From Azolla caroliniana (lineage: Eukaryota; Plantae; Polypodiophyta), in assembly GCA_043228905.1 (NCBI GenBank), contig JBHGNT010000016.1, positions 16,430,001 to 16,494,000 of the forward strand: a DNA stretch of 64,000 nt, read 5' to 3'. Under the pieces are notes generated by a model that was not told where the DNA came from, made no database searches, and worked only from the letters and a program-made list of their open reading frames with translations. Positions 12,571 through 60,155 of this stretch are shown here, piece after piece; the first letter of the stretch is position 1; every line of letters begins with the position of its first letter. Position numbers and translations under genes: made by a program.

Positions 12571-12616
12571 GGGGTGGGTCTGACGTGCCATGGCACTGTC
12601 CCACAGGCGTGCCAGG

Positions 12617-13098
12617 TGTTGTCCGCCGGAATAGTAACCGACGGACAGGGAGCGCAGAAATATAGAATATAGTATAAACCTAACGCATGTAAACGGTTCA
12701 CGCGGGAAGCGTGAACAGCTAAAAGACCATGTGTATATAAAGGGCAGAAATCCTCTGATACAGGTAGCGTGTAAATTTTGGTGCATAGAGCGTATCTTAA
12801 TAGAGTTTTATCTTCTTTGATCACTTGCGCAAATCTATGGTTAATCTACTGTGTGTCTGTGATTCTTGGTGGCGTACTGTAAGCACTATAATCGTAAGAA
12901 ACGTAGGCGTGAGTGCGAGTGTTGTGACTAGAGCACTGTCTAGGGAGTTCGGTTGTAGTCATCTCCCTTATACGCTACTAGGATATGGAGAGTTATCTCG
13001 TTACGTATTACGGTATGACGGTACCATTCGTGGCAACGCAGTCACCTTGAGGTCTAGGTCAAAGGACTGACTGAAGACCGTGTTCCTAATCGGTAACA
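12617..13098 (+). repeat. 3' LTR of Athila/Tat-like element
   Basis: TGTT...AACA ends; tatataaagg on + strand near 12734; U5 end similar to LTR starting at 61537 (minus). Confidence 0.75.
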
Positions 13099-31501: not shown

Positions 31502-32019
31502 TGTTAATCCTAGGGGTTGGACAATAACCTAACATAGGGTGTCCACTTAAGACACTTCTCTAAAGGGTGGTACGACAGAATGACTTACGACACAACGCTT
31601 AATTAGACCTTAATTGGTTACTTAGCAATCCATAATTAACACGCGTAAGATATAACAATGACTACAGAACGGTAATCAACACTGAGAGATTAAGACAATA
31701 AGCTCTATTAATTATCCGTTTCTGATTACATTATAACCGGGCCTTTATATAGGTCTCCGGTGCGAAATACAAAACGGTGCCAACTGGCACTTTTACGGGA
31801 TCGGTCCGGATCCGGATCGGCATATCGATTCCGGTCCGTCCGTCCACATCTTCTCATATATTAATATCTCTATTAAGATTACTAATTACAACAATTCCCG
31901 AATAAACTATTCCTTTTCACACTTTGATTTGGACCTCCTTAAGCCTTCTTGTTAGCCTGTAACACATGGCATGCCCGTGGGACAGTACCTTGTACGTCGA
32001 ACCCATTATCCGGCCCTTT

Positions 32020-34775
32020 TATGCTTCGTCCAAAATGTCCAGAATGCTTTGCTCCAAAATTTCCAATGGCTCGTCGGGAATCTGTTGTTGCTATTGTGGC
32101 TGCTGCTGCTATAGCTGTTGTTCCGTTGGGGCTGTTGCTACTATTCTGTTTGTGGTTGTGGGTGCTACTCCGTTTGTACCTTCTTCGTTTGGGGTTGCGG
32201 CTCCGTTTGTTGCGCTAGCATCGGCATTTCCTTTGTTGGTTCCTCCGTCGGAGTTGTATGTGGCTGACTAACCCTGGCCTGGTCCCTGTCTGGTCCTTGC
32301 ATCGGTGACGGTTCCTCATCACTAAGGTTGACCGTTGCCGCCTTTCTCGCTTTTTCTTCCCGCAGCCAGGACCGCTCATAGCTCCCAAACTGGATTTGAG
32401 CCTCCAGCCGATCGTCGTCCAGTTGAACTACGAGCTGCCGGACCTGTACCAGTTGTTCATCCGCCAAGGCTGTGAAATCTTCGGCCAACTCATCCCTTAT
32501 GGTGGTGAAGTCCTCCGAGGTCATCGTATAACAGTCGTCGCCCTCCTTTCGCCGGTTTTCCACGTCTGCCCTAAGCAATTGGAGTTCCGCCGTATTCTGC
32601 GCCCATTTCATCCACCAACGCACAGAGCTGTCGTCAATCAAGCTTTTGGTCTTAGTGAGCCATGACCGGAGGATGCATTGGATCCGTTCGGCTCCCATCT
32701 GTTATTTATTTTCTGTGGCTTGTCGCTCTTCCTTCAATTTCTTGATGATCCGAACCGTGTCCGCCTCCTACTCCCTATAATGCGACAATTGATTTTGATA
32801 GCTTGTTTGCAACCTTTGTAATACCATTGTCGCTCTTTCCTTGTCTTCATGGTTCTGTTTGTGGAGCTCCATCCGGTCATTCGCCGCTTCCTCCAATAGC
32901 CTGGAACTTTCCGCTCGTTTTTCGGCGAGTGCCGTTGTGGCCCTATCAACTTCTTGCCGGAGCTCGGCCATCCGTTCCTGCTGCTGCTTATACTCCGTCT
33001 CCAGCTGCTTGTAGTCCCGATGAAGATGATCGAAATCATCGGTCTTCTGCTTCAGCCTCTGATTGATCTGCCGGCGCGCGTGGTCCTCCCAGTCCTTCTG
33101 TTGACGGAGCTCTTCCTTCAGCCTCTCGATTTCCGTTTCCGCCATCCGTCGTAGCTTGTCTTTTTCCTGCAACAATTTCTCTTTTTCCTCCTTCAGTCGG
33201 TCGTAAGCATGACGTCCTTTACGCAGGTTTTCCTCTGCTCGGCGAAGGTTCTCAGTAGTCTTTTTTAATTGTTCTTCGGCCGCCTTCTTCAAGTCGCGTT
33301 CGTGGCACCGTAATGCTTCTTGTGCGGCGAGCTCATCTCGTAATTCCGCAAGCTCTTGGGCTTGCGCCGCATCTTTCTTTGGGACAGTTTGTGTCTCCGG
33401 GGTCTTATTCCTCTGTACATTAACCGGAGTCACCGGTGCTTGGATCTACGTTGCGGTTAAGGCCATTTTGGCCATATCTCCTGTGATCCGATCCAAGTCT
33501 TGTTCGAGGCACCAGATCCTTGACTGGGCCGTCTCCAGTTCATCGGTTGTGACAAGCAACCGTTCCGTTTGCGCTCTTTCCTCTGCCTCTATGCATCCGA
33601 CTACTCCGGCAATTTGTTCTCCTATCCATCGGAGCCATTGGCTGCCGGTGCACTGTTGTTGCGCTTGCACGGAGAGTTGGCTGATGGGTTCACTCGCCGG
33701 TGGCTGGTCCCGCTTTACTGCGTCGAGTTGCGCTTCTGGTTCTGCCAGCTGACTGTTTTGCCATTCCGGCTCTGAGTGTGTTTTGGCTAGTCGCCCTAAA
33801 CCCTACTCTTGAGTTACGGGGCTTGCTGGTGCTGCCTGTTGTGCAGGGACTTCTGTGACCGGTTTTCTCCGAACCGGTTCCGGTACCTCCCTTGGCGTGG
33901 GATGCTCAGCGTGAGTTGTGGGCGTTCCATCCTTCTGTGGGTCCAAATGCTTCCGGGCTGATTCAACGGTGCTCTTCACCGGCCGCCGCTGGAGGTGCTC
34001 CGTGGGTTCTTCCTCCATTTCTTCCGCCTGAGTCCCGGCATTCATTCTTGCCGCCAGGGTGTTCGTTTTCGGTTGCACCGGTCGGTGGAGTGGGCTCTTC
34101 AGGGGCCGTGCCGGTGTCTCCTCACTTGCATTCGTCGGCCGCTTTTGGCTGGCGCGCTCCTTTGCCGCCTTCTCTGCGTCGGCCGTCTTCCCCTTAGTGG
34201 CCTTGGAGGCCAATAGTTGTTGTCGTTTTGAAGCAGGTTTCGGGGTGCCATCCGTTGCTCTTCCCCGCTTCTTGGTTTGGACAGGCTCAACCGGTGGCGC
34301 CAACAGGGTGAGCCATTGTGTCACCGCATGCCATATTTTCCGGCCTTCCTTGCCGTCCATTCCTCTTACTATATCAATGGCCGTACACAGCCCGTCGGCG
34401 ATCAGCACCGACCAATCTACCTTGACCCCTTCGTACGTTGCGATGATCAAGCCTGCTCGGTTCTAAGGCATGACGGGGGGTCGAGGGTACACATGGCCGA
34501 ACTCATGGAGCACACGGGCAATTTCGCGGAATAGCATATCTTCACCGCCCTGTGTCTTGTAGCCCTTGTTGGCTAGAGAGTACGCACCGAAATATTTGAT
34601 GAATTGCTCGGAGGTAGGATTGTCGATCGTATAGATGCCTCGCTCCGGAAGGCCTATTAACGCACAGATCGCCTCCTCCATGATCACCTCTGTGTCGATT
34701 TCTTTTATAATCTTTTCGGCCTCCTTGTGTGGCCCCGCCTCCATGATCATTAAAAAACCCTCCAATCCATGCTGT
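32020..34775 (-). pseudogene. Extra 3' ORF (env-position), main part; its first codons lie at 46410-46458
   Basis: Removing the chromovirus rejoins MDCQTLSEAAKK*LR*HGLEGFLMIMEAG; then EEAICALIGLP, VDWSVLIADGL, a long coiled coil and a Trp-rich domain. Confidence 0.78.
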
Positions 34776-35233
34776 TGTTAGGAATAGTACTAAAGCAGAG
34801 ATGGAATTAGTACTAGAGAAGAGCAGTACTATTAGTACTAAGAGGACGGGACTGCGTAAGACTCCTGAGAGAGAGAGAAAGAGAGAAGCAAAAAGAGAGA
34901 TAGCGAGAATGAGAGAGAGAGAAGGATGATGACAACAGCTCTTATATTATATGAAAGATAAGTACAAATTGGCTAAGAGGCTTAAGACTGGTGTTGAACC
35001 AATTTGGTTCAACATAATGCCTAGTGCCTTCTTTTATAGTGTTGTCAAGAGTAATCCTGAAACTTCTAGAATGTTCCAGAGAAATCTGGAATATACATTA
35101 CTTTCTTATAATAAAACATAAATGAAAATAATATCCAAGGAATTACAATGGATGGTGTGATGGTTAAGAGCTCGACCCATATGCCATAAGGTTATGGGTT
35201 CGAGTCTTGCCATATCATGACACTATCTCCCCC

Positions 35234-38200
35234 TTAAAGACGACGAGTGGAACGAGTCGGCGCTGATTGCGGACCGGGTTTGTCCGGATACTTTCGATGG
35301 AAATCAGCAAGCAGATCCTGAGCATTGGCAACATGCTCGACGGGTTCCCAAGTGCGTTCGCTCGAACTATAACCAAGCCAATCGAGCAAATAATAAAGTT
35401 TGTTGCGAATAAGTTTGGAATCGAGGATGGCAGCAACTTCATACTCCGGGCCGACGTCCAACTCCAGCGGGGGCGGCGGTAGTGTAACATGATCGGGAAT
35501 GGTGTTTGCTTTATAAGGTTCAAGAAGAGAACAATGGAAAACCGGATGTATCTGAAGCTGTGGAGGGAGATCGAGGCGAAATGTGACATCATTAACCTTA
35601 CCCGTAATACGAAAAGGAGTGAGTCGTCGATAATCCAACTTGTCACACGGTTGAGTAGTCTTGATGTGACGATGTAAGAGCCATACTCAATCTCCGATGG
35701 CAAAAGAGAGGGGAAGTCGATGACGATCCGCGTAAGTCTTCTATGTTTGTTGAGCATGACGAAGATGAGTCGAGAGATCTGTTTGGATCTTGCGTAGTCT
35801 CTCCAAATGATCCCCGGCACGAGGATTGGTAGGTAACTCCGGGGTGTCGATCACCGACCAGCGAGGATGAGAACCGGTATAAGCGTAGAATGGGGAGACT
35901 CGAGTCGAGGAGTGAACAACATTATTATACGCAAACTCTGTAAAGTGGAGAATCTCGGCCCAATCGTCCTGTTGATAACTCAGGAAACACCTGAGATATT
36001 GCTCCAGCTTTTGGTTTGTTCGTTCCGCCTGCCCATCGGTTTGAGGATGGTACCCGGAGGAGAGGTTGCAAGAGACCTTGAGCATCTTGAAGAGATGCTG
36101 CCAAAATTTGGAGACAAATTGCGGTCCTCGGTCACTGATGATACTGTCTAGGAGGCCATGATGCCGAAATACCTCACGCATGACTAGGGTGGCGGTTTCC
36201 TCGCTAGTGATGGCCTTAGTACACGGAACAAAATGTGCCATCTTCGTATATCGATTGACGACGGTTAAGATAGCATCGAACCCCTGCGAGACCGGCAAAT
36301 CTGTGATAAAATCAAGACAAATAGACTGCCACGGCTTACTTGGAATCGGTAAGGGTTCCAACAAACCATATGGATGGTGTCGTGGCATCTTTGCTCGGCA
36401 GCAAGCATCACAAGTCTGAACGTAGTCGTCGACAAAACGACGCATGTGGGGCCACCAAAAAGATCGCTGCACTAGCTCCAACGTCTTAGTACTACCGAAA
36501 TGTCTCGCCGTATGGGTGTCGTGACAATGTTGGACGATTTGAAGGCGGCAGGAGCAATCGGGGACATATACGCGCTTTTTAAAGAATAACAAACCATCAT
36601 GATATTCGAATTGTCGGTAGTCAATACCTGGTTGTTAAGACTGAGAACAGGATGCCCGAGAAGTATCAATGTGGGCCAGGATGTCTTGAGCAAAACTATC
36701 CGTCTTCAAGTTTGCACGTATGTCATCGGTAATCCGTGAATCCATCAGGGTGTGAAAAATCTGCGTCGTGTGCAATCGTGTTGGCCCCAAGATTACTTGC
36801 TTTTGATTATCAAATGTTGGATCACCAGGACGAGGTGCAAGATATGAATGCCGTGATAGTGCATCTGCTTTTCCTTGCTGCTTCCCCGGTCGATATGTGA
36901 TTTTGAAGTCGAAATGCGTGAGGAATTGCGCCCACCGAGCTTGCCGTCGATTTAGTACGCGAGTGTTCTGGAAATAAGCAAGATTTTTATGATCACTAAA
37001 GACAATGACCTGATGTGGAGAGCCCTCTAAGAAATGCCGCCATTGCACAAATGAATCCACGATGGCTAATAACTCCTTGTCATGTATTTCGTAGTTGATT
37101 TCCGCGACATCGAATTTGTGCGAATGGAAAGCCACCAGATGCAACTCTTCTTTATCTCCTTGTTGAGAAAGGATGCTACCGAGGGCGAAATTTGAAGCAT
37201 CGGCCTCCATGATGAATGGTTTGCTGGTATCCACATGAGCTAGAATCGGTGCTGATGTAAAGGCTTTCTTAAGATGCCGAAAAGCCATATCTGCTTCGAT
37301 GGACCAAAGAAATGCTTGGCCCTTCTTCGTAAGTTGTGTGAGGGGTAAAATAATCTTTGAATAATCCTGTATAAACTTACGGTAGAAGTTAGCAAAACCT
37401 AGAAAACATTGTACATCTCGTACCGACCGTGGAATTTGCCACTCTAGTACAGTTTGAACTTTAGCTGGATCCATGGCGATGCCCTTTGAGGAGATGACGT
37501 AGCCTAGAAATTCCACTTGCTTGCAGTCAAAGCTACATTTTTCTAGCTTGGCATAAAGACCATTCTCGCGGAGCCACTTTAGTACTAATAGTACATGAGA
37601 ATCGTGCTCTTGCTGGGTCTTCGAATAAATCAATAGATCATCCAGATAGATGATCAAATAGATATCCAAGAGGTCTCTGAATATATCATTTGCCATGTGT
37701 TGGAAGACTGCGGGTGCATTGGTTAAGCCGAACGGCATAACAATATACTCGAAATGCCCATACCGCGTGCGAAAGGCGGTCTTCCATTCATCTCCCGGTC
37801 GGATCCGCACGAGGTTATACGCTCCTCGTAGATCGATTTTGGTAAAAAACTTGGCACCATTAACTCGCTCTAAAAGACTTGGTATAAGAGGAAGTGCATA
37901 CCTATTCCGGATGGTGACCTTATTCAATCCGTGGTAATCAACGACGAGACGAAGTGAGCCATGTTTCTTCTTGACAAAGAAGATGGGTGCACCGGCCAGA
38001 GATTTCGAATGACGGATGAACCCGCTTGCCAAGTTCTCCTCTATGTAGGCTCGAAGGACTTCTAACTCGGTGGGTGACAAGTTGTAAATTGGTCCCCATG
38101 GTGGCTCGGTTCCTGATTGTAAATTGATGGGACAGTCATAGGGACGGTGATGAGGAAGGGTACCGGCTTTTACCTTGTCAAATACATCGGCATAAGGATG

Positions 38201-39789
38201 ATATTTTGCCGGAAGTTGTACTGAGGAGTCCTTCTTAATAGTGTTGGAAGGATGTACTGATATTGCAAATAGGAACATTGCCTCCTTGTGTCCTTCTTCG
38301 CGTAATTGATGGAGTGAAATGGTCGAAACTCGGTGAGTAGATTCTTGGGGTGGTCGATATCAGACTTCTCTTGTTCTCCAATCTATGGCTAGATTATGTA
38401 ATTCAAACCAAGGTAATCCTAGGACAATGGGATGCTCTGGACTACTACTTATATTAAATGATATTACACACACAAAACTACCTAGGACAACTTGAATGGG
38501 TTCTGATTCTTCTACAATATTCCCGGAAGCAATGGGACGACCATCAATGACTACTACAGATGCGGGACAAGGAAGTTTTCTTAGGGATATCTGAGAAGCT
38601 TGGGCAAAATTTCGATCCATGAAACAGGAATTAGCTCCGGAATGTAAAAGTGCTAGGACGGGTACTGGGAGAGTACTTTTAGTACTAACAATGACTTGGG
38701 CTAGGAACACATTGCTAACTTGCTTGGAAGGAATGGAATCACTAATGGGCTGTACAGATCTAGGGCTGCTGTCCAACCAAACGGCTCCTATTTTGGATGG
38801 ACTCAATTGTTTAACTCTTCATCTAATTGACTAAGGATTTCAAATTTGTTTGAGATACTTGGGCTATTAGTACTATGAATACTATCTGACACTCTATTAG
38901 TACTATTAATACTATCTGACACTCCGAAGGGAAGAATTGACTCGGGTTTAGTACAGGCAACGATTTGATTTACCTGTCTTCTTGGCCTATGGGGACAATT
39001 GATGGCGATATGCCCTGGTCCACCGCAATAAAGACATAATCGATTGGCACGTCGTCGTTGCTTTTCTTCTTCCGATAACGGGCCGCGTCGACGCATGGTA
39101 TCTTTCTCCATCGGTGTCGAAGTATTTGCTTGAGGTATGTCTCGTGCAAACGGTTTAGCCACGACTGCGGCGTAAGTGGGCTTTGGCCTAGAGCGTGGTA
39201 TCTGTAATTGACGTTCCGAACGCCGTTCGAAAAGGCGGTTGTCACATCGGACCGCTCAACCGATTGCCTCCGTAAGAGACTTTGGTTCTTCGGGGAAAGT
39301 TAGAAGTAGATCTTTGACATCGTTTCGCAGGACATAGCAAAACTGCTCCATTAGTGCTTGATCATCCCAGGGTATATCTGAAGCGAGTAGGCGGAAATCC
39401 GCAGCATAGGCAGAGGCTGGACGATCGCCTTGACGCAATCGCCGGATCTTCTTGATCGCCGTCCTGATGTTGTCGGTGTCTCGAAAGCAGGCTTTAAACT
39501 CACTAATAAAATCTTCAAAGCTATTAAGCAAGGGCGATTGTTTTTCTAGAAGCGGAGCGAACCATGCTAAGGCTGAGCCGCTAAGCAACGTGCCAATTAA
39601 GCCGACTCGGGATGCATTAGTGGGATATCGGGAAGGATGCATTTGGAGGATTAATCGTACCTTATTAAGGAATCCCCTGAATTGCGATCGCGTTCCATCA
39701 AATTTCACAGGAAGTCCAATCTTCGGCTCTTTATGAAATCCTTGGGGACTTGATCCTTGTTGTTGCAATGCTGCTTCGAGTTGTTGCAC
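35234..39789 (-). pseudogene. gag-pol of chromovirus A, with frameshifts and stops
   Basis: ORFs 39256-39789, 38803-39162, 38360-38806, 36635-38278, 35741-36592, 35234-35638. Confidence 0.93.
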
Positions 39790-40346
39790 TCCTAATGCTA
39801 ACTGTCGTGACTCTTGAGTAGGAAGCAGAGAGAGAGCGATGGCGATAGAGATAACGATAACGATAGAGATGGCGAGAGCGGTAGAGATAGCGATAGTGAT
39901 AGCAAAAGAGAGTGAAAAAGGGAGAGAGTGCGAGAGAGAGAAAAGTATAAGTGAGAGATAAGAAATGGGAATGAGATTATATTATGAGAAAGAAGATTAC
40001 AAGGAGTAGGCTAAGGGCTAAAGACTGGTGTTGAACCGAATGAGTTGTGATGAGTGTATGGACTCTTATTTATAGGCCCTTATGGAGTATTCTAGAATGT
40101 TCTAGAATATTTTAGATATTTATGAATAATAATAATAATAATAAATATAATCATGAAATATTCAAGAGCATTCTAGAATAATCTAGAATGTTCTAAATAT
40201 CTCGTAATAACTAAACATATAATTATTATGATTACATCTCACATATGTTATTACAATGGTTAAAGTACAATATGTAAACCAAGAGGTTATGGGTTCGATT
40301 CCTGGTTCGCCAAGATGAATGTCATGATAAGCCAAGATGTATGTCT

Positions 40347-43300
40347 TCATGACATTATCCCCCCTTTTCGATGACGAGTTGCACGAGTCGGAAGAAAAGA
40401 TTTCAGACTTGGTTTATGAGGATATTGGTTGTGAAATGCAACAACCATGTCGGAGGCATTGGCAAGATGTTCGGCAGGCTCCCATGTTCGATCATTAGGT
40501 GTATAGCCTAACCAATCAACCAAGTAGTATAGTTTGTTGCGAATGATCTTGGAGTCGAGGATAGCGGCAACCTCATATTCAGAGCCATTGGAAACGTCAA
40601 TTGGAGGTGGGGGAGGTGTAACACGACCCGGAATAGAGCTCGTTGTGTAGGGCTCCAAAAGTGAAACATGGAAGACCGGGTGAAGACGCATATGAGGAGG
40701 AAGATCAAGACGAAATGTCACATCATTGATCTTACCACTTATGACATATGGGCCAAAACGTTGATAATCCAATTTGTAGCAAGGTCGGGTCGTTTTAATG
40801 CTACCTTGTAAGAGCCATACACGATCGCCTACTTGAAATGTAGTCGATGAATCACGCCGATGACGGTCAGCAATCTTTTTTTGAGTGTTTTGGGCTTCAC
40901 ATAAATGATGCAAAAGCATATCCTGAACTTCTTGGAGTCGAGTGAGCCGATCTTCAGCAGCTGGGTTTTTTGGGAGTTCAGGATGTTCAAGCATCGTCCA
41001 ACGAGGATGGTACCCAATGTTTGCAAAAAATGGGGAATATCCAGTAGAAGAATGCTCGGAGTTGTTATAAGCAAATTCTGCCAAAGGTAGTAAATCCACC
41101 CAATCATCTTGTTGATAGTTGACAAAACAACGTAGATATTGCTCGACTGTTTGGTTGGTGCGCTCACTCTGCCCATTAGTCTCTGGATGGTAACCGGAAG
41201 AGAGTTTACAAGAAGTATGTAAGAGTTTGAACATGTGCCGCCAAAATTTCGAGATGAATTGGGGACCCCGATCACTGATAATATCATCCGGAAGACCATG
41301 ATGGCGAAACACCTCCCGCATGAGTAAATCAGCTGTCTCTTGACTAGTAATGGTCTTTGTGCATGGAAGGAAATGTGCCATCTTCGTAAAACGATCGACA
41401 ACCGTGAGAATCGAATCAAATCCCTTGGAAGGTGGAAGATCCGTAATAAAGTCCAAGGAAATAGATTTCCATGGGCTCTCCGGAATAGGCATTGGCTGTA
41501 ATAAGCCATATGGATGATGTCGAGGCTTTTTTGATCGGCAACATGTATCACAGCTACGAACATAATCCGTAACAAAATGGCGAAGCCGTGGCCACCAATA
41601 TCGGCGAGAAATCAACTCAAAAGTCTTGTGGATGCCGAAGTGTCCCGCCATTGGTGTGTCATGACATTGTTGCATGACTTTGAGTCGAGAAGGACCGTCA
41701 GGCACATACAAGAGAGTTTGTCGAAAAAGTAACCCATCATGCCAACTAAACTGGGTGTAGTCTAGACGAGGATTTTGAGTTTGGGAGCTAGATGCACGAT
41801 TTGGGATAATATGGCTCAAAACCTCTTGGGCGAACGCATCAATCGCAATCTGCTCACGAATGGAATCAAGAAGCCTTGAATCTCCCGGTGTGTTGATGGT
41901 ATGCATTGCCATTATTCGTAGACGATCAGGACCTAAGAGGATTTGCTTTTGGCTTTCAAATGCGGCCTCTCCAGGTTGAAGTTCCATATACGAACGTCTA
42001 GATAAAGCATCTGCTTTTCCTTGTTGCATCCCAGGGCGATATAGAATTACAAAATCGAAACGAGTTAAGAACTGCGCCCAACGAGCTTGTCGTCGATTCA
42101 AGACTCGAGCACTTTGAAAGTATGTTAGATTTTTATGATCATTGTAGACAATAATCTGCTGAGAAGAACCCTCCAGAAAATGACGCCATTGTTGAAAAGA
42201 ATCCACAATGGCAAGAAGCTCTTTGTCGTGAATCTCATAGTTGATTTCTGCGGCTTCAAATTTTCGTGAGTGAAAAGCCACCGGGTGCAGTTCACCATCA
42301 TCACCAATTGGGATAGTACACTTCCGAGTGCGAAATCCGATGCATCAGCTTCAAGTATAAAGCGCCTCATTGGATCGACATGGATTAAGATTGGTGTGGA
42401 TGTAAATGCTTGCTTTAAACCCTCAAATGCAGAGTTCGCATCTATACTCCATACAAATGGTCGATTCTTGTGCGTCAGTTGAGTGAGGGGCAACACAATT
42501 TTTGAATAATCTTTGATGAACTTGCGATAAAAGTTTGCGAACCCCAAAAAACATTGCACATCTCGCACGGACTGTGGTGTTTGCCAATCCAAAATTGTTT
42601 GAACCTTTGATGGATCCATAGAGATGCCATTTGAAGAGACTATGTACCCCAAAAACTCCACTTGACATTGGTCGAAACTACACTTCTCCAATTTTGCATA
42701 GAGACCATACTCTCGTAGCCGTTGCAAAACTTGGCGAACATGTATATCATGTTCTTCTTGAGTTTTTGAGTAGATCAAGATATCATCCAGGTAAACAATG
42801 ATGAAGATATCGAGGAAGTCTCGAAAAATATCATTCGCCATATGTTGGAAGACTGCTGGTGCATTCGTGAGGCCAAAAGGCATCACTGTGTACTCAAAAT
42901 GACCATAGCGAGTGCGGAACGCCGTCTTCCATTCATCCCCAGGACGAATTCGAACAAGGTTGTAGGCACCTCGAAGATCTAACTTCGTGAAATACTTTGC
43001 TTCACTGAGGCGTTCTAGAAGGCTTGAGATCAATGGGAGAGCATATCGGTTTCTAACGGTCACTTTATTCAAGCCTCGATAATCCACGACCATACGAAGC
43101 GTACCATCTTTCTTCTTAACGAAAAAGATGGGTGCACCAGCAGGAGATTTTGAATGTTGGATAAAACCATTTGCCAAGTTCTCATTGATATATTCTCGAA
43201 GAACCTCTAACTCCGTGGGCGAAAGATTATAAATTGGTCCCCATGGAGGCTCTTTTCCTGGCTGCAAATCAATTGGGCAATCATATGGTCGATGCTCTGG

Positions 43301-43951
43301 TAGTCTATTAGCCTTCACCTTATCGAACACATCGGAGAATTCTATGTACTTCTTTGGTAGTTGGACCCCCAATTCTTGTGAGCTAGATGAGGGAGTTGCT
43401 AAAACCGCAAATACCATCATGTCTTCCTTTCTTCCATCCTCTCGTAATTGATGTATAGAGATTGTTGAAATTGTGGGGGATCCTAGATCCTTAGTTGGAG
43501 CTTCAAGAGACTTGGATTGTACGGTGACCTCTTCAATAGTTCTTTTTCTCCAATCAATGGTTGGGTTATGTAACTCAAACCAAGGAAGACCAAGAACTAG
43601 AGAGTGCTCCGGACTACTAATGATGTTAAATGAGATGACACTAGCCAAATTACCTAGGACTACACGAATTGGTTCAGACTCTTCGACTATATCTCCTGAT
43701 GCTATAGGGCGACCATCGATGACTCCTACAGCTACTGGGTTTGGGAGTTTTTTCTAGATGATGTTTTGAGTCAATGCAAACTCGTGATCCATGAAACAAG
43801 AATTGGCTCCGGAATCTAGGAGGGCAGAGGCTAGGGCGCGATGACCTGTAGATGTGCTAAGCTCGACTTGTGCAGAAAAAACTCTACTAACTTGATTTGA
43901 TGAAATGGAACCACAACTAGGTACTGACTCTACATAACTAGGATGGTCCAA
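40347..43951 (-). pseudogene. pol (PR-RT-RH-IN-chromodomain) of element B; one stop at 43754 and a 1-bp deletion near 42307
   Basis: LLDSGA, MPFGLTNAP, YLDD, DASD, HDKELLA, HPETNGQSER, FGPY, YEVAAILDSK...WEP. Confidence 0.95.
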
Positions 43952-45104
43952 CCAAATGACTCCTATTTTGGCCGGACTTATTCTTTAACACATCCTCTAA
44001 TTGGCTCAAGACATCAAATCTATTCTCATGGCATGGGCTATTAGGCTTAGTACTTAAGTTATTAGAAGTGATAGTAGAACTTGATGTAGGGTTGTCATGT
44101 GCACTTACTTGGTAAACTTGACGCCTGGGTTTATGTGGACAATTCACAACTATATGTCCTGGACCACCACAGTAGAGGCATAGGCGATGCGCCCGACGTC
44201 GTTGTTTCTCAGCATCTAATAAGGGCCCTCGACGTTGTGTCGACTCTATTTCCATCGGAGTGGGACCATCCCTCGTAACGGGTCTAGAACCTTGTGGCGG
44301 TGTGGCGACTATAGAAGCGTATGTCTGTTCCGGTTGGCGGCGTAACATTTGTTGACGTTCAGAACGTCGCTCAAATAGGCGATTATCACATCGCACAGCT
44401 CGGCTAATAGCTTCAGTAAGAGACTTTGGATCTTCATGGAAAGTAAGAAGAAGATCTTTGACATCGTTACGCAAACCCTGACGGAATTGATCCATTAAGG
44501 CTGCCTCATCCCAAGGGATGTCGCATGCCAAGAGACGGAAATCTGCGGCATAAGCTGAAGCGGGACGATCTCCTTGTCGGAGTCTTCGAATCTTGTTTAT
44601 TGCAGTCCTAGTGCTATCCGTATCTCCAAAACTAGCTTGAAACTCCTTAACGAATGCCTCGAAATCCTCCAGTAATGGTGATTTCTTCTCAAGAAGTGGT
44701 GCAAACCTTGCTAACGCTGTACCGCTTAGCAAGGTTCCTATTAATCCCACACGGGCAGCATCAGTTGGATACCGATTGGGATGTAACTGAATCACCAAAC
44801 GAACTTGATTCAGGAAACCTCGAAAGAGAGATCTGGTACCATCAAACTTGGCAGGGAGGCTAATCTTTGGTTCCCTTGGGGAGTTTTGAACCCCCGCCGC
44901 TTGTTCTCGTAATGTTAATATAGTAGCCTCAAGTTGATGAACCCGTTGTGATAACTCCTCATATTGATGAGCTTTCTCAGTACTGACTTGTTGAAGATCC
45001 CCGAGTAGCCTTTGATTTTCTTGCTCTAATGCCACAAACTTAGTGGTGAGCATATCGAGCTCCGAAAGGACACGCATATACTCTTGCTTGCTGACCGACT
45101 CCAT
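43938..45104 (-). CDS. gag of element B (388 aa)
   Basis: PAKFDG, LRQG..SAYAADF, PMEIE, knuckle CLYCGGPGHIVVNC. Confidence 0.92.
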   Translation of the reverse strand: MESVSKQEYMRVLSELDMLTTKFVALEQENQRLLGDLQQVSTEKAHQYEELSQRVHQLEATILTLREQAAGVQNSPREPKISLPAKFDGTRSLFRGFLNQVRLVIQLHPNRYPTDAARVGLIGTLLSGTALARFAPLLEKKSPLLEDFEAFVKEFQASFGDTDSTRTAINKIRRLRQGDRPASAYAADFRLLACDIPWDEAALMDQFRQGLRNDVKDLLLTFHEDPKSLTEAISRAVRCDNRLFERRSERQQMLRRQPEQTYASIVATPPQGSRPVTRDGPTPMEIESTQRRGPLLDAEKQRRRAHRLCLYCGGPGHIVVNCPHKPRRQVYQVSAHDNPTSSSTITSNNLSTKPNSPCHENRFDVLSQLEDVLKNKSGQNRSHLVGPS

Positions 45105-46921
45105 AACCGCGGGGGAAAAAGAAAGAAGGATAAAGAAGAAAGCTTGCTAGGGTTATTGGAGAAAGGGAAAAGAAATATTCGGTTCAAATTGTCGTGACTC
45201 TTGAGTAGGAAGCAGAGAGAGAGCGATGGCGATAGAGATAACGATAACGATAGAGATGGCGAGAGCGGTAGAGATAGCGATAGTGATAGCAAAAGAGAGT
45301 GAAAAAGGGAGAGAGTGCGAGAGAGAGAAAAGTATAAGTGAGAGATAAGAAATGGGAATGAGATTATATTATGAGAAAGAAGATTACAAGGAGTAGGCTA
45401 AGGGCTAAAGACTGGTGTTGAACCGAATGAGTTGTGATGAGTGTATGGACTCTTATTTATAGGCCCTTATGGAGTATTCTGGAATGTTCTAGAATATTTT
45501 AGATATTTATGAATAATAATAATAATAAATATAATCATGAAATATTCAAGAACATTCTAGAATAATCTAGAATGTTCTAAATATCTCGTAATAACTAAAC
45601 ATATAATTATTATGATTACATCTCACATATGTTATTACAATGGTTAAAGTACAATATGTAAACCAAGAGGTTATGGGTTCGATTCCTGGTTCGCCAAGAT
45701 GAATGTCATGATAAGCCAAGATGTATGTCTTCATGACACTAACTCCCCATGTTGTTGCTGCGTTTGTTGTTTTTCTAGAGCGATATGTTGCAGATCCCCT
45801 ATCAGTCGTTGGTTTTCTTGTTCCAAGGCAACAAATTTTTCTTTTAAGCACTATAGCTCGGAGAAAACGGATTGATATTCTTGGGCGCTAACAGTAGCCA
45901 TAGTATAGGAAAAAGGGTAGGAGGATGAGGGAGAACGACAAGTAGGTTGGAGGACCGGCAAAATTGGTTCAAACTGTCAGGAATAGTACTAAAGCAGAGA
46001 TGGAATTAGTACTAAAGAAGAGCAATACTATTAGTACTAAGAGGACGGGACTGCGTAAGACTCGAGAGAGAGAGAGAGAAAGAGAGATAGTGAGAATGAG
46101 AGAGAGAGAAGGATGATGACAGCAACTCTTATATTATATGAAAGATAAGTACAAATCGGCTAAGAGGCTTAAGACTGGTGTTGAACCAATTTGGTTCAAC
46201 ATAATGCCTAGTGCCTTCTTTTATAGTGTTGTCAGGAGTAATCCTGAAACTTCTAGAATGTTCCAGAGAAATCTGGAATATACATTACTTTCTTATAATA
46301 AAACATAAATGAAAATAATATCCTATGAATTACAATAGATAGTGTGATGGTTAAGAGCTCAACCTATATACCATAAGGTTATGGGTTCGAGTCTTGCCAT
46401 ATCATGACAGCTACCGTAGCTATTTCTTTGCAGCTTCAGATAGCGTTTGGCAGTCCATTTCTGCGTCGAGGTCGGAGAGCGTTGGCGAGGTTTGGTGGTG
46501 GGGAGAGTGCAAGAGAGAAAGTTCTGAGGGAGGGGGTTCACTGTGTGCGAGCTCTCTACGATTGATCTTCACGCGTCACTCTGCGTCTGTTCTCCTTGGT
46601 TCGCGATAGGAGAAGGTCTCGATGCGTGGGGCTTTTTCTCTCTGCATCTTGGCGCCTTTTTCGAGCCTCCGCATGTGCAAGTCGTGTACTATAATAGCAT
46701 TGCGTGCCATGTGGGGGTGGTTTAATGTCCTATTCATAGCCCCTCGTACCCTTTTTGACGTGCCTCTTTACTCCTCGTGTGCATGGTCGTTTCCACCACT
46801 CCTTTTCATGATTTATTTGTGACGGTTTGCCGTCGTTAAGCTTTCCCCGGTTGGCAACTCGTGCTCCCCCTTACCGGCTTGGTGGTAGCCGTTTTCCTCA
46901 CGGGTTGCCGTCGTGGTTGGC

Positions 46922-49900
46922 CTACCGGCGTCTGATTCGGGAGCAGCCCTTCTTGGGCATAGAGCCTTTGTATGGCTTTAGTCTAAATCCGTTGACCCAT
47001 TTACCCTGCACTTCGCCGACAACTATCCCTAACTGGTAAGACCCATTAAACTCGCGTGTGATCCAGTACGGTCCGGTCCATCTAAACCGTAGTTTGCCTG
47101 GCATTTTACCCATCCGGGTCTGGAACACTAGTACCGGCTTGCCGATGCCAAACATTTTCTCGTTGCCCTTCCGGTGCCGATCTACAAACACTTTCTGTCG
47201 TCGTTGTTCCAATTCCAGGTGCATGATGCTCGCCAGTCGGTGTTCTTCTAGTTCACACAGAGCCTTTAACCGAATTGCCTCTGATTCCTTTTCATTGAGT
47301 CGTTCCCGAATCTGAATCCGTAAGCTTGGTACCTGGAATTCGACCGGCATGACTGCCTCTAATCCGAATGCTAACCGAAACGGTGTTGTTCGAATGCTTG
47401 TCTTGTACGTTGTCTGATAGGCCCAGAGCGCACTATGCAGCTTCGTATCCCAATCCGTCCGGTTTTCGTTGACGATTTTCCGGAGGATATTCTGGAGTGT
47501 TTTGTTCGTCGACTCAGCTAACCCGTTTGCTTGCGGATAGTACGGTGAGCTTCGTTTATGTACTACCGCATAGAACGTTGTCAAACATTCTACCACCTGT
47601 CCAAGAAAGTGCCCTCCTTGGTCGCTTATCAGCTCTATGGGGCATCCTTACCGGCACCAAATGCATTCGTATAAGAATTTCTCCGTTGACGCCGCGGTGT
47701 TGTCTCGTTGGGCTTTCGCTTCCACCCACTTAGTGCAGTAATCCGTCGTGACGATTACGTACCGGTTACCGGTTCTCATTGCCGATGGTTTAAATGGCCG
47801 GACAAAATCCAGCCCCCATTTCTGGAATGGTTCTAGTGGTAGGACTGGCTGATGCAACATCCTAGCTTGTTCCGTTGGTTGGCCCATTCGCTGGCATAGA
47901 TCACACTCTTTCGCGTACCGGACTGCGTCTTTCAATGTAGTCGGCCACCATAAGCCACTTTGCCATATCTTCCTTGCCGTCGCATCCCCGACATAATGAC
48001 CTCCGGCGACTCCGCAGTGTGCCTCCCGTAGTATTACCTCTTTCTCGTCGCTGCGCACCGCTCGTCGCCAGATACCATCCGCACCTTTGTGGTATAGCGT
48101 GTCCTATAATAAACAGAAGTGTCGGCTTTGTACCACCAGGCGTTTTCTCTCGTCTCGGTTCATCTCCTCCGGAGGCAATCCGGTACTCAGAAACTGGTGC
48201 ATATTAGTTAGCCACTTATCTTCCTGTGCCAACGTTTCATCTGTTGCCGTTTCCATGGTGACTCGAAAAAGCTCTGCATCCGGAAACTCGTCCGGTACCC
48301 TGTCACCCATCTCCCCGGAATCTAACCGGCTTAGATAATCTGCTACCGCATGCTGTATGTCGGGTCAGTGGAATATCTCGAATTCGAACTCCTGCAACAG
48401 CAAGGTCCACCGGGCCAACTTACCGGTACGTGACGCTTTGGATACTAGGTAGAGGAGTGCCGAATGATCTACATGGAAGGAGAACTTTCTTCCTAATAAA
48501 TAATGCCTGAATTTTGTTACACTGTAGATCATTCCTAAAGCTTCCCTTTCCGTGGTAGAATAATTTCGTTCTGCTTGGTATAGCTTCCGGCTGGCATAAT
48601 ACCCTGGCCGGTACCACCTTGGCTTGGTAAGCTGCATGAGCGCGCTGCCGATTGCGATGTCGGAGGCGTCCACGAACACATGAAACTCTTTACTCCAATC
48701 CGGAGGCTGCACTACCAGTGCTTGTGACAATAATACCTTTAGTGCCCGGTATGCCTTGTCTTCGACGTCTGTCCATTGGAATGGTGTTCGGTGTACTGCC
48801 ACATGCAGAGGTGTAGCCAGGTCCGCCAAATATCAGAGCATACAGCTATGCCAACGGATTTGTCCTAAGAAACGGCTCAATTCCTTTGCCGTTGTCGGTG
48901 CCGGTGCTTCTAGGATTGCTTTCACTTTGTCCAGATCTACGGCAATGCCTTCCTTGCTCACAATATGCCCTAGTAGCGTTCCGCTGGATACTCCAAATAC
49001 ACACTTCACTGGATTCAGGCTTAGCCAGTACGCCCTACACTTCTCTAGACATAGTCTGAGATGCTGCAAATGATCTTCTTCTCTACTATAGACGGCGAAG
49101 TCGTCAAGGAACACCTGCATAAAGGTCGGTATGTATTCGCTAAAGATCTCCATGATGATCCGTTAGAATGTTGTTGGTGCCGTTTTCAGTCCGAACATCA
49201 TCACCACGGCAACAAACACTCCCCATTCGGTGACGAAAGCCGTTTTCTCTTGATCATCAGGGTGCATCCGGATCTGATTATACCCGTTGAATCCGTCTAA
49301 GAAATTATAGACTTCATGGCCGGCGACGGCATCCAAAACTCCATTCGTAAACAGAAGTGGAAATGCATTTGTTACCGTTGTCGCATTGAGCTTCCGGTAG
49401 TCAACACAAACTCTAATTTTGTCGTTCTTCTTCTGTAGGACTACGATCGGGCTCAACCATGTAGATTTCTTTACGGGATGGATGAAGCCAACCCTCAGCA
49501 ATTTGTCGATCTCCTCCTTGACTTTGGCGGCGTAGTTTGGGTTCATCCGGTACCGACGCTGTGCAACCGGCTTGGCATCTTTGCTCAGATGTATCTGGTG
49601 CTAATACAACTAAGGATCCAGGCCTCTCATATCCTCATAAGACCAGGCAAATACGTCGCGAAACTCGTTGAGGAGTGTAATTATCGCCGTTTTGTTCTCT
49701 GCATTCATTTCTTTGGCGATGTGCACCGGTTTTGCCTCCTCCGTCGTTCCTAGATTTACCTCTTCTAATTGAGACGCTTTTACGCGCTATGATACGGCCA
49801 TTTCCCTTTCCAACGCCTCCTGTGCTTGCCATAACTCCCGGATTGCTTCTTTATCCGGTTCCCCTTCGGTTCCATCCGGTTGCAGTAAGTAGGGTGATAC

Positions 49901-51732
49901 CGCTTCGGCGATGTCAATTTCGAATAGGGGTACAATCTTCGGGCTCTCCAGCAAGTACTGATCTTCTTCTTCGTCTCCTAATTCTTCCAGCATATTGACG
50001 CACTCCGCATATAACGGTGTCAGATCCTTGCCGGTGCCCTTCCTTGGTTGTGTTGGTACCCGTACCTTCGCTTTTTCCCGCCGGAACGTAATCATATTCC
50101 TCCTCCACTTCTGCTTGATGTGTGCTGTCTTTAACCAAGGGCATCCCAATAATAATGGGTACGCTCCTTGAGCCTGCAACTTGAGAACTATGGCTGAGAT
50201 TTGGAATGTGTGGCCCCCGATGGTTACTTCTAAGTCCCGTATTAATCCTGTTGGTCGCACCGAGCTTGTGTCCGCCATTCGGAGCCAGAACAGACATGGC
50301 TCCCACTCTTGGATTCCAAGAGCATCGCACGTCCGGAGGCTGATTACATTAACGCCGTAGCCTCCGTCTATTATCGTGCCAAGGAGTTCTTTCCCTTTCA
50401 CAATGGCCGTAATTGCCAGACTGTTGGTGTCCACCACCGCCGGTCCCTCCTCCGGATTTGAGAAGAATGTTGGAGCCGGTGGTGTTCCGCCTGTCGACAT
50501 GCCAAACTTGAGTCCTTCTGTGAATCTTGGTACTAGCTGCAAGAGTCGTCCTAATGGTAGCACGATCTGGCATTCCTGCAATACCTGCCATGTCACGTTT
50601 TCGGACTGACTGCCATCGGCGAGCTCTTCGGTGTTCTCCTTTTGCTGCGCAAGTTCTGCTACGTTTCGCTCATTTGCCTTTTTCACCCATTCTGTTGCCT
50701 GTTTTCGGATGGCCTCTTGTGTCTCCCATTCCGTCGTCTTGCCCTTCGACCTTGTGGTGACCTGCTGTAGGTCTACGATTTCAGCGACTACCATGTTTAC
50801 TGCCGATCGCTTATCATAGCTCTTTGCCAGACATTGATTACTGTAATGTCCTTCTTTCCGGCAATAATAGCAATATGCTTTCTAGGTATTGCTGGATTCG
50901 GCATTGTTTCCTGGACATGGTGGAGGGCCTGTGGTAACCGCGGGGCTCTGGTCCGGTTGGTTGCTTGAGGCGCCTTTTTCCGGTTCACGTGGGTGGCTCC
51001 CGTTTTTGAAATGTTGTTTTTTATTAAAGTTCTTTTTGTTACGGTACCATTGCCGGGGTTGGTCGTCATACCTCCCGTAATCTTCCCGTCGTTGGTGATA
51101 ACCGGGGGAGTGATCTCGGTTGTGATGCTCGTACTGTCCATTGTAATCTCGGTACTTGTCATATCTCTTGTACCGGTCATAGTTGTCTCACCGATTGTCG
51201 TACCGGACATCCTGTGCCGGTCGATATCACTCCTCTCGCCGCCAGCGTTCGTCTTCTTCGTCTCAGCTGCTACGTGGCTCAATTTGCCGGACTGGTGGTG
51301 CTTGCTGATTCAATAAGTTATATTCACACCGGTCCATCGTGTGGCTCGTAGATTGGCAGAGTAAGCAGTGCGTCCGCATGGTGCACTCCAGTGACGAGTG
51401 TCCGGAATTCAAGCAAGTTGAACATTGGATTGCTTGCCAGAAACGGAGATCCTCATCGGTTGGTAATGCTCGTTGGAGGGCTCCCATTGTTAGCCAAGAG
51501 CTCGTTTTCTCCATTTCTCTAACCCGGTCGATGACCTAGTCGACAGTGCTTGTGTGAAAGTCGATGACCATGCATACCGTTCGTAGAGGTTCCCGAAGCG
51601 CGGCTAAAAATATAGCCCACGTTTCTTCCTCCGGAGGTGCGCGGGTAAGCTGATTGTGCATCCGTTGAAACCGGATGACAAACATCACGATGTATTCTTT
51701 TGGTGGTGGTTTCACACTATGTATTGAAAACA
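46922..51732 (-). pseudogene. gag-pol of the Athila/Tat-like element
   Basis: Fragmented ORFs 46922-47596, 47648-48058, 48365-48829, 48833-49153, 49163-49546, 49787-50794, 51263-51736. Confidence 0.92.
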
Positions 51733-56200: not shown

Positions 56201-58729
56201 TGACAAATGGTCGGAAGCCTTATATACTTGACCATCACCTGACCCGACATCAACTATCCGGTCGGCGTGATCAACCAATATATACAGCAACCGACCGTGG
56301 ACCACCTTCTGTGCGCGCATCGAATTTTGCGATATGTGAACAACACGGAGGAACTGGGACTGTTATACCAGCATGGTATAACCGAAGAGATAGTTGGCTA
56401 CACCGATGCCGACTTGGCCAACGATGCATCAGATCGCCGATCCACCTCCGGATATATGTTTTCCCTTGGTAGCGCGGCTGTTGTGTGGAGCGGCAAAAAG
56501 CAGCCAACAGTGGCCCTTTCGAGTATTGAGGCTGAATATCAGGGCGCTACCGTCGCCACCTGTGAAGCCATTTGGCTTCGGCGACTGCTGCAAGACGTAC
56601 GGATCAAGGTACCGACCCCGATCCTGATCCACTATGACAATATGAGCAGCATGCAGCTCACCAAAAACCTTGTATTCCATGCTCGCACAAAGCACATAGA
56701 AGTGCACTACCACTTCGTGTGTGAGCGTGTCCTGAGCGGTGACGTCGAACTTCGGTATGTTCATATGGATCGGCAAGTTGCCGACATCTTCACCTAACCG
56801 CTCGGATCGGACAAGTTGCAGCACTTGACCGAAATGCTTGGTGTTCAGCATCTCGACGTGCCACACTTGAGGGGGAGAATGGGCAAAGACACCGGAACGG
56901 GAAAAGGCAAAGAGATTGTTGATTGCACTGGTAAGGGAAGAACCGTCAAGGGGAGAGACAAGAAGAAGAAAGGAGTCGATTCAACAAAGGAAGTTGACAC
57001 ATCCGAACAAGTCGGAACAAGCGGTAGCAGTGGGAGAATCAAGAAGGACAAAGCTGACCGGAAGAAGAAGGCAAAGACCCGGACATGGTCCGATGTGGTG
57101 AAGGGCCTGAGACAGCCGATTCAGTTCAACAGAAGGATTCCTAAGAACCGGATCAATCCAAGGCCAAGAGGACGAGAAGGTAGCGAAAGTCGACACCAAC
57201 ACGAAGGAATCGGCGAACGGGTACGCGTCGAAGTCACAGCAGCGAGGGAGCTGAATTGGGCCTGTTGATCAGATGAGCCGACCGAGAAGGTCGAGGTGCA
57301 CAAAACCAGAGGGGTCGCGGCAAACGGGACCGGACCGGACGAGTAGCATGCGCGAGGCGGGGTGACTCTAGAAGGAGCCGGGTGGAAGGACCAGCTACCA
57401 TGGAGACTAACACCACGATCCGACCTCAAGTTGAGCTTGAGGGGGAGTGTTGAGCGGCAAGCTCAACCGGATCCGGATCGGCATCCGGAAGGATGAGCCA
57501 GTGAGCAAGCGAGCCGGTGAGCTGGGGAGCCAGTTAGTTGGATCCAGCAATAACCGGAAGCCTACTAATAGCTTAGATTACTAGGTAGTTAATAGTCTCG
57601 TAATTAGTGTCAAACACTCGTGTGAGCATTGAAGTATGTTGTACTTCTGTCAGTCCTCTTAAGACTTGTATAAATAGTGTTGTTGAGCACGTTTCATGTA
57701 CAGAGAACTATTATTGATTTGTAATAGATTTAAAACCTTCTGCTCTCTCATTCTCTCTGTCTCTCCCGCGTACACTCTCTGTTAATCTCTCTCTCTCTCT
57801 GTTGCTATCTGGCAAGGCCGGTTTGTCTAATGCTTCCGCACATAAACTTTAACAAAAGGTTACATTTGTCGGATAACTTCACTCTTCGTGAGTTATACCA
57901 AGTCTATAAGGATGACATGTTACTGGAAGGTGTAGCTTATATACAATATAGGCATTTCAATCGTTTATGGAGATCGAAGTTTAACAATGTGGTCATACCC
58001 CGCAAGGTCTGGATGGGTGTTTCTTTGATCTGCGCAAGTTTAAAAAGCTTGGCAAAGAGTGGGACAAGAGATGAAGAAATAACAAAATATAAGACTTTAT
58101 TGAGAGACCATCGAGAAAGCCAAGGATTGGAAAGATCTAAAGCTATGTACCATCGTTAAGAAGTGATTCTATCACTAGAAAGATACATGTGCTTGATTAT
58201 AGATGGGATGGATCAGAAGAAAACTTGTTTCCCACATTTTTGAAGATTGCCCAAGGATATTGGAGATGAATGCCTAGTGCAGATGCAATTAGTAGGATGT
58301 CTTTTGTATTTTCAGACAATAAGGCCTCAAGTGTTCTTAACATATCCAAATATCCACAACGACCCTAATCTTACAGTTACAGTCATGCAAAGAGTTATGC
58401 AAAATTGGCAAGGTTTACTTCCACCAGTACTATACGTGCAACTTCACAACACGGCGAGAGAAAGCAAGAACTCAACTATGTTTGGTTACCTGAGCATGTT
58501 AGTAGACATGAGTATTTTCAAAAAGATTAAGGTCAACTTCTTGCTAGTTGGTAATACACATGATCACATAGAACAAATGTTTAGTAGGTTCTCCAAGAAA
58601 TTAGCGAGGTGCAATGCTTTCAAACTTCCTATGCTATCAAGGTTGATTACTAAAGCTTATACCCCCAAGCCAGATGTGCAACATTTAGATGAAGTATATG
58701 ATTTCAAACGCTTCTATTTGGATGGTGAT
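53205..58729 (+). pseudogene. Sola-type DDD transposase relic, split by the copia insertion and truncated by chromovirus C
   Basis: Reads through the TSD as RWMEIYFSKQCDVIPTTRRLHLSDNF; then C..C-like region, LIIDGMDQ, LYVQLHNTARESKN, FLLVGNTHDHIEQMFS. Confidence 0.72.
53388..57854 (+). mobile_element. Internally deleted Ty1/copia element
   Basis: LTRs 53388-53809 and 57448-57854; PBS 53810-53821; PPT gagggggag; TSD gaagg/aaagg; gag 53917-54710 joins the integrase C-terminus directly, then RT-RH. Confidence 0.94.
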
Positions 58730-60155
58730 TGTCAAGAGAGAGAGAGAGAGATAATTCAAAGGGAATTATTATATTGAAGAGTAAAATGGATTACAAAGAG
58801 TAGGCAATAGAGTGCTACAAAATAGTGTTGAAACCATTTAGGTTTGGGATAAGTGGTAGATCCCTATTTATAAGTAATAGAGAATACTCTAGAATATTCT
58901 AAGTTCTCCTAGAATGTAGAGTAATCTAGAAGATTTCTAGAGTATTCTAAAAGGTTCTAGTGTATAGAACACTCTAGAATATTCTAGGTTATTCTAGAAT
59001 GTAGAGTAATATAGAATATTCCTATGATATTAGATTTCATATTCTAAAAACTACATATAAGAATGTTAATACAATGGTTAAAGATTTGACATGTGTACAA
59101 CAAGGTCATGGGTTCAAATCCTTTTGAGGCATAATGTGAGTCTCATGATCCTTTAGATGCATGATGTGAGTGTCATCATGACACTATCCCCTTTCTTCGA
59201 CGACACGTCGCACAAGTCGTAGGGTTTGTATTAGGACCTTTTTTACGAGGATATTGCTGATGAAATGCAGTGACAAGTTCCGCAGCATTGGAAAGATTTG
59301 CAGCAGGTTCCCAAGTTTGATCATTGCGGGTATAGCCTAGCTAATCGACTAAGTAATATAGCTTGTTGCGCACGATTTTATAGTCGAGAATGGCATCAAC
59401 TTCAAATTCGGCTCCATCCAAGAACTCGACAGGTTGTGGGGGTGTCGTAAAACGGCCTGGAATTGAACTTGTAGTATAAGGTTCCAAAAGGGATAATTGA
59501 AACACCGGATGAAGATGCATGTGCGGAGGGAGACCAATACGAAATGCAACATCAAGTATCTTACCAGTGATGATGTAAGGGCCAAAACGTTGGTAATCCA
59601 ATTTACTGCAAGATCGAGTGGTCTTGATGTTGTGTTGGAGAAGCCATACATGATCCCCAACGTAGAACTTTTCTGAGCAGTCTAGACGATGACGATTGGC
59701 AAGCCTCTTGTGTGTAACTTGAGCATCCTGTAAATTGTGGAGAATGGTTGTGTGAATTTTTTGGAGGCGACTAAGATGATCCTCGGCAGTAGGGTTCGTA
59801 GGAATGTCTGGATGTGCATTCATCGTCCACCGAGGATGACAACCCGTATTTGCGAAAAATGGGGAATATACTATAGAAGAATGGGCTAAGTTATTGTAAG
59901 AAAATTCCTCCAAGTGCAAAATATCAACCCAATCATCTTGTTGATAGTTGATGAAACAACGAAGATATTGCTCCAACGTTTGGTTGGTACGCTGAGTTTG
60001 GCGATTTGTTTCGATATGATAGCCCGAAGAAAGCTAAACCGAAATGTGGAGAAGTTTGAACATGTGCTTCATAAACTTTGAGACGAATTTTGTAGCACTT
60101 TGTTGCCTACTCTTTGTAATCCATTTTACTCTTCAATATAATAATTCCCTTTCAA

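Follow-up and report, generated by a model that had tools for sequence, protein, structure and literature searches.

A split, inverted tRNA-Arg(UCU) site takes the place of the polypurine tract in Athila-like Ty3/gypsy elements of Azolla caroliniana and probably serves plus-strand priming by host tRNA

The window analyzed, a 64-kb stretch (64,000 nucleotides) of contig JBHGNT010000016.1 of Azolla caroliniana, is a nest of LTR elements. On its minus strand lies a 463-nt LTR (31502..31964) that starts with TGTTAC at position 31964, has TG...CA ends, and contains a TATA-like box, TATATAAAGG, at 31751-31742; full-length and solo copies of this LTR are flanked by 5-bp duplications of the target site (TSDs), which fix its boundaries. 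Upstream of the LTR, in the sense of the element and on the same strand, are found a 2-nt spacer, TG (31965..31966), and the motif GTCCCACGGGCATGCCA (31967..31983), which corresponds to bases 59 to 76 of tRNA-Arg(UCU), including the terminal CCA but minus one C. The motif is preceded by a hairpin of 4 bp with a 3-nt loop (31985..31995), which is placed between tRNA bases 58 and 59 and shows compensatory changes across families, and by a block (31997..32006) that matches bases 49 to 58 of the same tRNA, namely, the 5' strand of the T-stem and the T-loop, at 9 of 10 positions. Farther upstream, the region of an extra 3' open reading frame (ORF) of the same element (32019..34775) is interrupted by stops in the window copy, and since one in-register stop lies ~15 nt before the module, the module in the window is read as noncoding. 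Nested chromovirus-type Ty3/gypsy insertions, which have LTRs of their own and are foreign to the element, occupy 34776..46409, and the element's own gag-RT-RNase H-integrase remains follow at 46410..51683, all on the minus strand. The 5' LTR is deleted in the window and is present, with a tRNA primer-binding site (PBS), in a local duplicate. An earlier note on this sequence had reported the motif, the spacer, the LTR start, and the TATA-like box at these positions and had taken the LTR for a 3' LTR because pol, the extra ORF, and the TATA-like box are on the same strand. The nearest pol (35.2-40 kb) turned out to belong to the nested chromovirus-type element; the element's own gag-pol remains (46.4-51.7 kb) are nevertheless also on the minus strand, so the 3' LTR assignment stands. 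The minus-strand DNA complement of 31967..31983 is likely the plus-strand primer-binding site of the element.

A second family in the window carries the same arrangement on the plus strand (12574..12614), with the T-arm block at 12574-12583, the hairpin at 12585-12596, and the motif at 12598-12614, followed by the spacer GG and a 3' LTR (12617..13098). The sequence of this LTR is unrelated to that of the first one; the two cannot be aligned over more than 12-nt words (best E value, 0.027). Despite this, the motif, the missing C, and the 2-nt spacing are common to both, as had been noticed earlier, and the motif matches the window twice at up to 3 mismatches, against 0.08 matches expected. The earlier description of the two copies as independent is correct for the LTR families, which differ, but not for the sites, which have a common origin and represent one shared module, each locally duplicated. 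Near-identical local duplicates of both window copies are present on the same contig, and the nested array of the window is repeated 3 to 5 times with 94 to 100% identity at C16:16.44-16.77 Mb, as a local segmental duplication.

The order of gag, RT, RNase H, and integrase between two LTRs, together with the TG...CA termini and the TSDs, is that of Ty3/gypsy elements. The catalytic D, E, and D residues of RNase H, which the earlier note had proposed to inspect, are present, in the motifs DAS, E, and DH. In the 1,861-amino-acid polyprotein of a related family (one polyprotein, taken whole), no chromodomain was detected at E values up to 0.01, and there was no match to the second, archaeal-type RNase H that defines the Tat clade (TatI-III, Ogre, and Retand); its RNase H domain ends at residue 1367 and its integrase zinc domain starts at residue 1481. 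The same family has an 877-amino-acid sense ORF after pol, in agreement with the additional ORF, or long noncoding 3' stretch, of Athila and the OTA superclade. Phygy and Selgy are short elements in which the polyprotein fills the internal region, which does not agree with the ~2.7-kb extra ORF region found here. Taken together, the element may be classified as a non-chromovirus Ty3/gypsy element, Athila-like by the features described in the available part of PMC6317226. The features shared with the Athila side of the OTA superclade in that part of the source are the lack of a chromodomain and of a second RNase H, a large sense 3' ORF, 5-bp TSDs, and a tRNA-Arg PBS; no tRNA-like site at the 3' LTR is mentioned there. 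Named RT relatives, compared as proteins only, are 43 to 58% identical; they come from Adiantum among the ferns, from Riccia and Calypogeia among the liverworts, and, among the seed plants, from a conifer set and Pyrus. The extra 3' ORF (L176:7022-9655; window 32019-34775) has a weak match, below the cutoff, to a coiled-coil-type Pfam family.

Canonical elements have a polypurine tract (PPT) directly before the 3' LTR. Among the 30 best LTR matches, 7 had the motif upstream and no PBS, 21 had a PBS downstream and no motif, and 2 were solo LTRs; no LTR of the 30 combined motif and PBS, and none had a purine tract. A tRNA PBS thus follows all 21 5' LTRs. In the seven 3' LTRs, which had been selected by LTR sequence, the motif takes the position of the PPT, and the longest purine run in the last 20 nt before the LTR is 3 nt; short purine runs of 3 to 9 nt occur within 60 nt upstream. 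A purine-rich tract before the nested chromovirus-type LTR at 35222 provides an internal contrast. The earlier note had seen in the motif a selected cis-element at the PPT position, a view that the analysis supports, and had named a normal PPT abutting the LTR and a motif before 5' LTRs as observations that would speak against this. Neither was made: a purine tract was absent in 7 of 7 3' LTRs, and the motif, which lies outside the LTR and is kept across many LTR families, preceded 0 of 21 normal 5' LTRs. The LTR start is fixed at TGTT by the 5-bp TSDs of three full-length copies; TSDs of this length were also found for one copy of another family and two solo LTRs.

Genome-wide, 2,094 sites carry the exact C-less motif with two further bases and then TGT (control, 0), and the C-containing form gave 8 matches with a strict and 11 with a CpG-tolerant pattern. 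Of 196 sites, 189 have a 2-nt spacer and the other 7 a spacer of 4 nt. Host tRNA-Arg(UCU) genes have the same 3' letters as the motif plus one extra C. The PBS of the window family matches tRNA-Arg(UCG) genes over 13 nt, while its 3' motif is of the UCU type; the second window family has a UCU-type PBS. The motif had no match in viral contigs. In metagenome contigs, at least 124 stretches were matched, and the same module was recognized by eye in 78 of the 79 loci listed; since these 78 belong to one accession series and resemble the families of this genome, they do not show a wide taxonomic spread. The stretch is also covered by contigs assembled from three DNA runs that bear three organism labels, most deeply in the bin of the module; such contigs cannot show ends or primers.

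The motif is the end of a longer module, a divided copy of the 28 bases at the 3' end of tRNA-Arg(UCU), which consists of bases 49 to 58, a covarying 4-bp hairpin, and bases 59 to 76. Across the LTR clusters, the order is T-arm block, 13- to 14-nt insert, and motif. Of 146 distinct sites, 123 have a block that matches tRNA bases 49 to 58 at 8 or more of 10 positions when the best of 7 offsets is taken, and the match includes T-loop bases that are unable to pair within the RNA. The hairpin pairs at 4 of 4 positions in 118 of the 146 sites (G-T allowed, better of two loop sizes), and its stems are exchanged as whole pairs, namely, GTGC/GCAC (50 sites), GTAC/GTAC (23), GGAC/GTCC (23), and GGGC/GCCC (5). 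As these exchanges are Watson-Crick pairs, the hairpin can form in DNA. Over 21 family representatives, 94% of the cells were paired, and none of 500 shuffles reached the observed percentage paired, the number of cells with changes on either side of the stem together, or the score for covariation; the pair count and the type count, the other two of the five measures, were unexceptional (reached by 188 and 489 of 500 shuffles). The earlier note had proposed that the preceding ggYactgt folds back on the motif and that the region upstream of 3' LTRs be aligned for covariation. This alignment did reveal a covarying structure, which is the small hairpin inside the insert; the proposed fold-back can form in the window copy, but it shows no covariation over the 21 representatives, its values being reached by 107 to 168 of 500 shuffles. 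Pairing of the T-stem within the element RNA was rejected as well (80% paired, but without compensatory change). In the related family, the 877-amino-acid ORF stops directly before the module, and coding therefore does not explain its conservation. Cofolding of module and tRNA gives a three-way junction, which, being based on RNA energies, is a sketch only, and the sense RNA of the module is predicted to fold stably.

The position and conservation of the module, its bipartite match to the tRNA, the covarying hairpin, the separate ordinary PBS, and rare fusions of tRNA to left LTR ends are direct observations. In the element RNA the module is identical to the tRNA, so that a tRNA can bind only to the complement on minus-strand DNA, and the CCA end of the module lies 2 nt before U3, which is where a plus-strand primer must end. 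We consider it likely that host tRNA-Arg(UCU) anneals to this complement and initiates plus-strand synthesis at a point two bases ahead of U3. In the proposed sequence of events, (i) the minus strand would be primed at the 5' PBS, by tRNA-Arg(UCG) in the family of the window and by the UCU isoacceptor in others; (ii) RNase H would clear the RNA over the module; (iii) the tRNA would pair through bases 76 to 59 and 58 to 49, with the DNA hairpin extruded at the 58/59 junction, an extrusion that would open the acceptor and T stems; (iv) RT would extend the CCA end through the spacer into U3; and (v) the primer would usually be removed, failing which RT would copy it onto the left end of the cDNA and stop at, or misread, m1A58. 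Since the element RNA, and never the primer, is the template for the internal site, this site would go on lacking the C. In its broader form, which we judge likely, this reading applies to a whole clade of plant Ty3/gypsy elements, in which the PPT would have been replaced by a second, inverted, bipartite tRNA site, host tRNAs would prime both strands (two Arg isoacceptors in some families), and the DNA hairpin at m1A58 would produce a three-way priming junction. It is probably a plus-strand priming route so far undescribed, in a known element class. No description of a tRNA site at the PPT position or of a tRNA-primed plus strand was found in the accessible portion of the literature searched, and the available text of PMC3185511 has no match for the word "tRNA."

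A primer that escapes removal is copied onto the left end of the cDNA, and left ends thus record the primer. Of the 11 C-containing matches, 7 places, corresponding to four independent events, are located at left LTR ends in LTR sense. The remaining four are ordinary PBS ends that match when the opposite strand is read, one with a 4-nt spacer. Matches at L127/L182, L128/L183, L184, and L188, as well as L068, L069, L071, L072, and L195, had been considered left-end captures and were rejected as such PBS ends. Each of the four events contains a true tRNA copy, with the C and CCA, followed by the spacer of its own family. (i) At C2:12014867, tRNA bases 20 to 76 are followed by TG, a 5' LTR, and a PBS; two duplicates lie nearby, the element is full-length, and its own 3' site lacks the C. 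(ii) At C2:12742726, bases 26 to 76, in which only A58 is changed (read as T), precede the 4-nt spacer of the family, a 5' LTR, and a PBS. (iii) At C16:17527333 and 17527821, exactly bases 59 to 76 plus AG are found where two LTRs join; in this family, the element's own 3' site is not identical to the tRNA. (iv) At C20:881280, bases 59 to 76, with one CpG-type change, precede TG, an LTR, and a PBS, with gag-pol after it. In two of the four events the copy hence ends at base 59, and in one base 58 is misread, which would be the pattern expected at m1A58, a modification that we assume, from general knowledge, to be present on tRNA-Arg(UCU) of this organism. A stop of RT after 18 nt of primer tRNA at m1A58 is known behavior in HIV-1, according to the part of PMC13191261 available.

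None of the 11 C-containing matches had the hairpin module upstream, which argues against a random insertion of the C at 3' sites. A search for the C-less motif joined directly, on its upstream side, to foreign or tRNA sequence gave 4 matches, none of this kind and all of them ordinary 3' sites, with a pattern that detects about half of random flanks. As to tRNA-Arg(UCG), a left-end copy was found in 0 of 5 matches (control, 2), one being an ordinary PBS and four unrelated sequence; three of the four left-end events are in families with a UCG-type PBS. At ordinary PBS ends, UCU tRNA read-through accounts for 16 of 29 matches to a T-loop pattern, classed by eye, and the number of such copies of the minus-strand primer indicates that these fossils form readily here. 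Read-through copies of both UCU and UCG tRNAs are numerous at PBS ends (L068, L069, L071, L072, L193-L195, L198-L201, L203-L207, L215, L216, and L218), several stop near the anticodon arm, and they appear to constitute a fossil record of tRNA modification stops. At L218:30-130, two right LTR ends are joined head to head via a UCG tRNA copy and its PBS, and at L127 (G000:C4:4077071) a full 18-nt UCU-type PBS is followed by the sequence usually found after the UCG-type PBS, an apparent primer switch.

Other left ends speak against tRNA priming. A search for LTRs of 445 to 475 nt that are preceded by the final bases of the motif and followed by the PBS spacer yielded 5 matches. Three were 5' LTRs that retain the C-less module plus 56, ~227, and ~261 nt of internal sequence, in full or near-full elements and beginning at three different places, and the other two were 3' LTRs with look-alike flanks; no tRNA-type left end was found in this length-restricted search. 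Upstream plus-strand starts, or recombination, are thus apparently about as frequent as tRNA retention, of which there are only four independent events. These C-less ends fit upstream mispriming or recombination and keep the rival explanations alive. According to the first, which we consider unlikely, the element's own module RNA survives RNase H and primes as a non-purine PPT would, the likeness to tRNA reflects ancestry or mimicry for RT, and the fossils are later template switches. The stable fold of the sense RNA and the three extended ends agree with this, as do the UCU copies at PBS ends (16 of 29), which place this tRNA in the particles, available for switching. Under such priming, however, C-less left ends should have a fixed start and C-less/tRNA hybrids should occur, and the four C-less matches contain neither; the three extended ends do not share a start, and a fourth candidate, L152, with an apparent 34 nt of retained C-less primer, was rejected because another LTR has inserted in its module, with a later inversion. 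Moreover, RNA folded off the DNA cannot prime. A jump of RT from a finished left end onto a tRNA may also account for the fossils, though the UCG control makes this less likely.

Still less probable is the second, in which plus strands begin at RNA fragments scattered upstream and the tRNA site has another role, either defining the left end or binding tRNA, or 3' tRNA fragments, in regulation or packaging. The extended C-less ends and the purine runs of 3 to 9 nt would suit it, but normal 5' LTRs begin exactly at TG with 5-bp TSDs, the left end at the LTR-LTR junction holds only tRNA bases 59 to 76 plus the spacer, and a site that is identical, not complementary, to the tRNA cannot bind it in RNA. 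Pairing of the site with the element's own PBS, for self-priming or circularization of the RNA, would require complementarity, which exists in part in families with a UCU-type PBS (the second window family and one other); we regard it as very improbable, since the 13-nt UCG-type PBS of the window family has only 4 bases in common with the site, which stays of the UCU type, and such families contradict it as a general rule. That the motif is the ordinary PBS of an oppositely oriented element, as might be thought because the plus strand reads CA, 2 nt, TGG and the genome does contain true PBSs with 2-nt spacers (they gave 4 of the 11 matches with the C, one with 4 nt), is refuted by full-length copies with gag-pol, the extra ORF, the TATA box, and a separate PBS on the strand of the motif, and with TSDs.

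The reading with host tRNA as the plus-strand primer can be compared with known systems. Yeast Ty3 (PMC5371799) and HIV-1 (PMC13191261), in the parts of these sources available, share with the element a tRNA PBS after the 5' LTR, the order RT-RNase H-integrase, and a primer site just before U3; in both, a purine tract of the element RNA that resists RNase H primes the plus strand, whereas here the LTR is not preceded by a purine tract and the module in that place is identical to a tRNA. Apart from the plus-strand primer, the element would replicate as Ty3 and retroviruses do. In the bipartite PBS of Ty1 and Ty3 (PMC5371799, in part), acceptor stem and T-arm pair with two blocks, as proposed for the module, and Ty1 has a small internal loop between them; those blocks are complementary to the tRNA in RNA and prime the minus strand, whereas the module is complementary only on minus-strand DNA. 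The Helenus TRIMs, as far as described in the available text of PMC10886601, also contain tRNA-derived sequence in an LTR element, but there it lies within the LTR, where it is a Pol III promoter, and the PPT is kept, whereas the sequence here is outside the LTR, terminates in CCA, and stands in place of the PPT. The nested chromovirus-type LTR (35222-35150 and 46409-46335, minus strand) starts with a tRNA-like stretch in antisense, in which words resembling an A-box and a B-box were recognized by eye; this stretch recalls the Helenus promoter, but the element is autonomous. In hepadnaviruses, the virus's own RNA supplies the plus-strand primer, namely, its 5' end, which is moved to a complementary site on minus-strand DNA; a transferred RNA primer on minus-strand DNA is shared, and the difference lies in viral RNA versus host tRNA.

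In the teaching on LTR retroelements and retroviruses, priming from a purine tract counts as an invariant step of replication. If the proposed priming is true, a successful clade without a PPT (more than 2,000 sites in one genome) indicates that this step is replaceable, a natural alternative makes plus-strand primer selection testable, and both strands would be tied to the supply and modification of host tRNA. Annotation software that relies on the presence of a PPT would overlook or misorient such elements. A non-autonomous internal region of ~2 kb without pol matches (L038, L039, L125, L126, and L351) is paired with LTRs of different families and keeps both the PBS and the 3' tRNA module. 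Finally, the window contains at 58244-58777, on the plus strand, an ORF fragment with a DUF7869 match, unrelated to the tRNA module.
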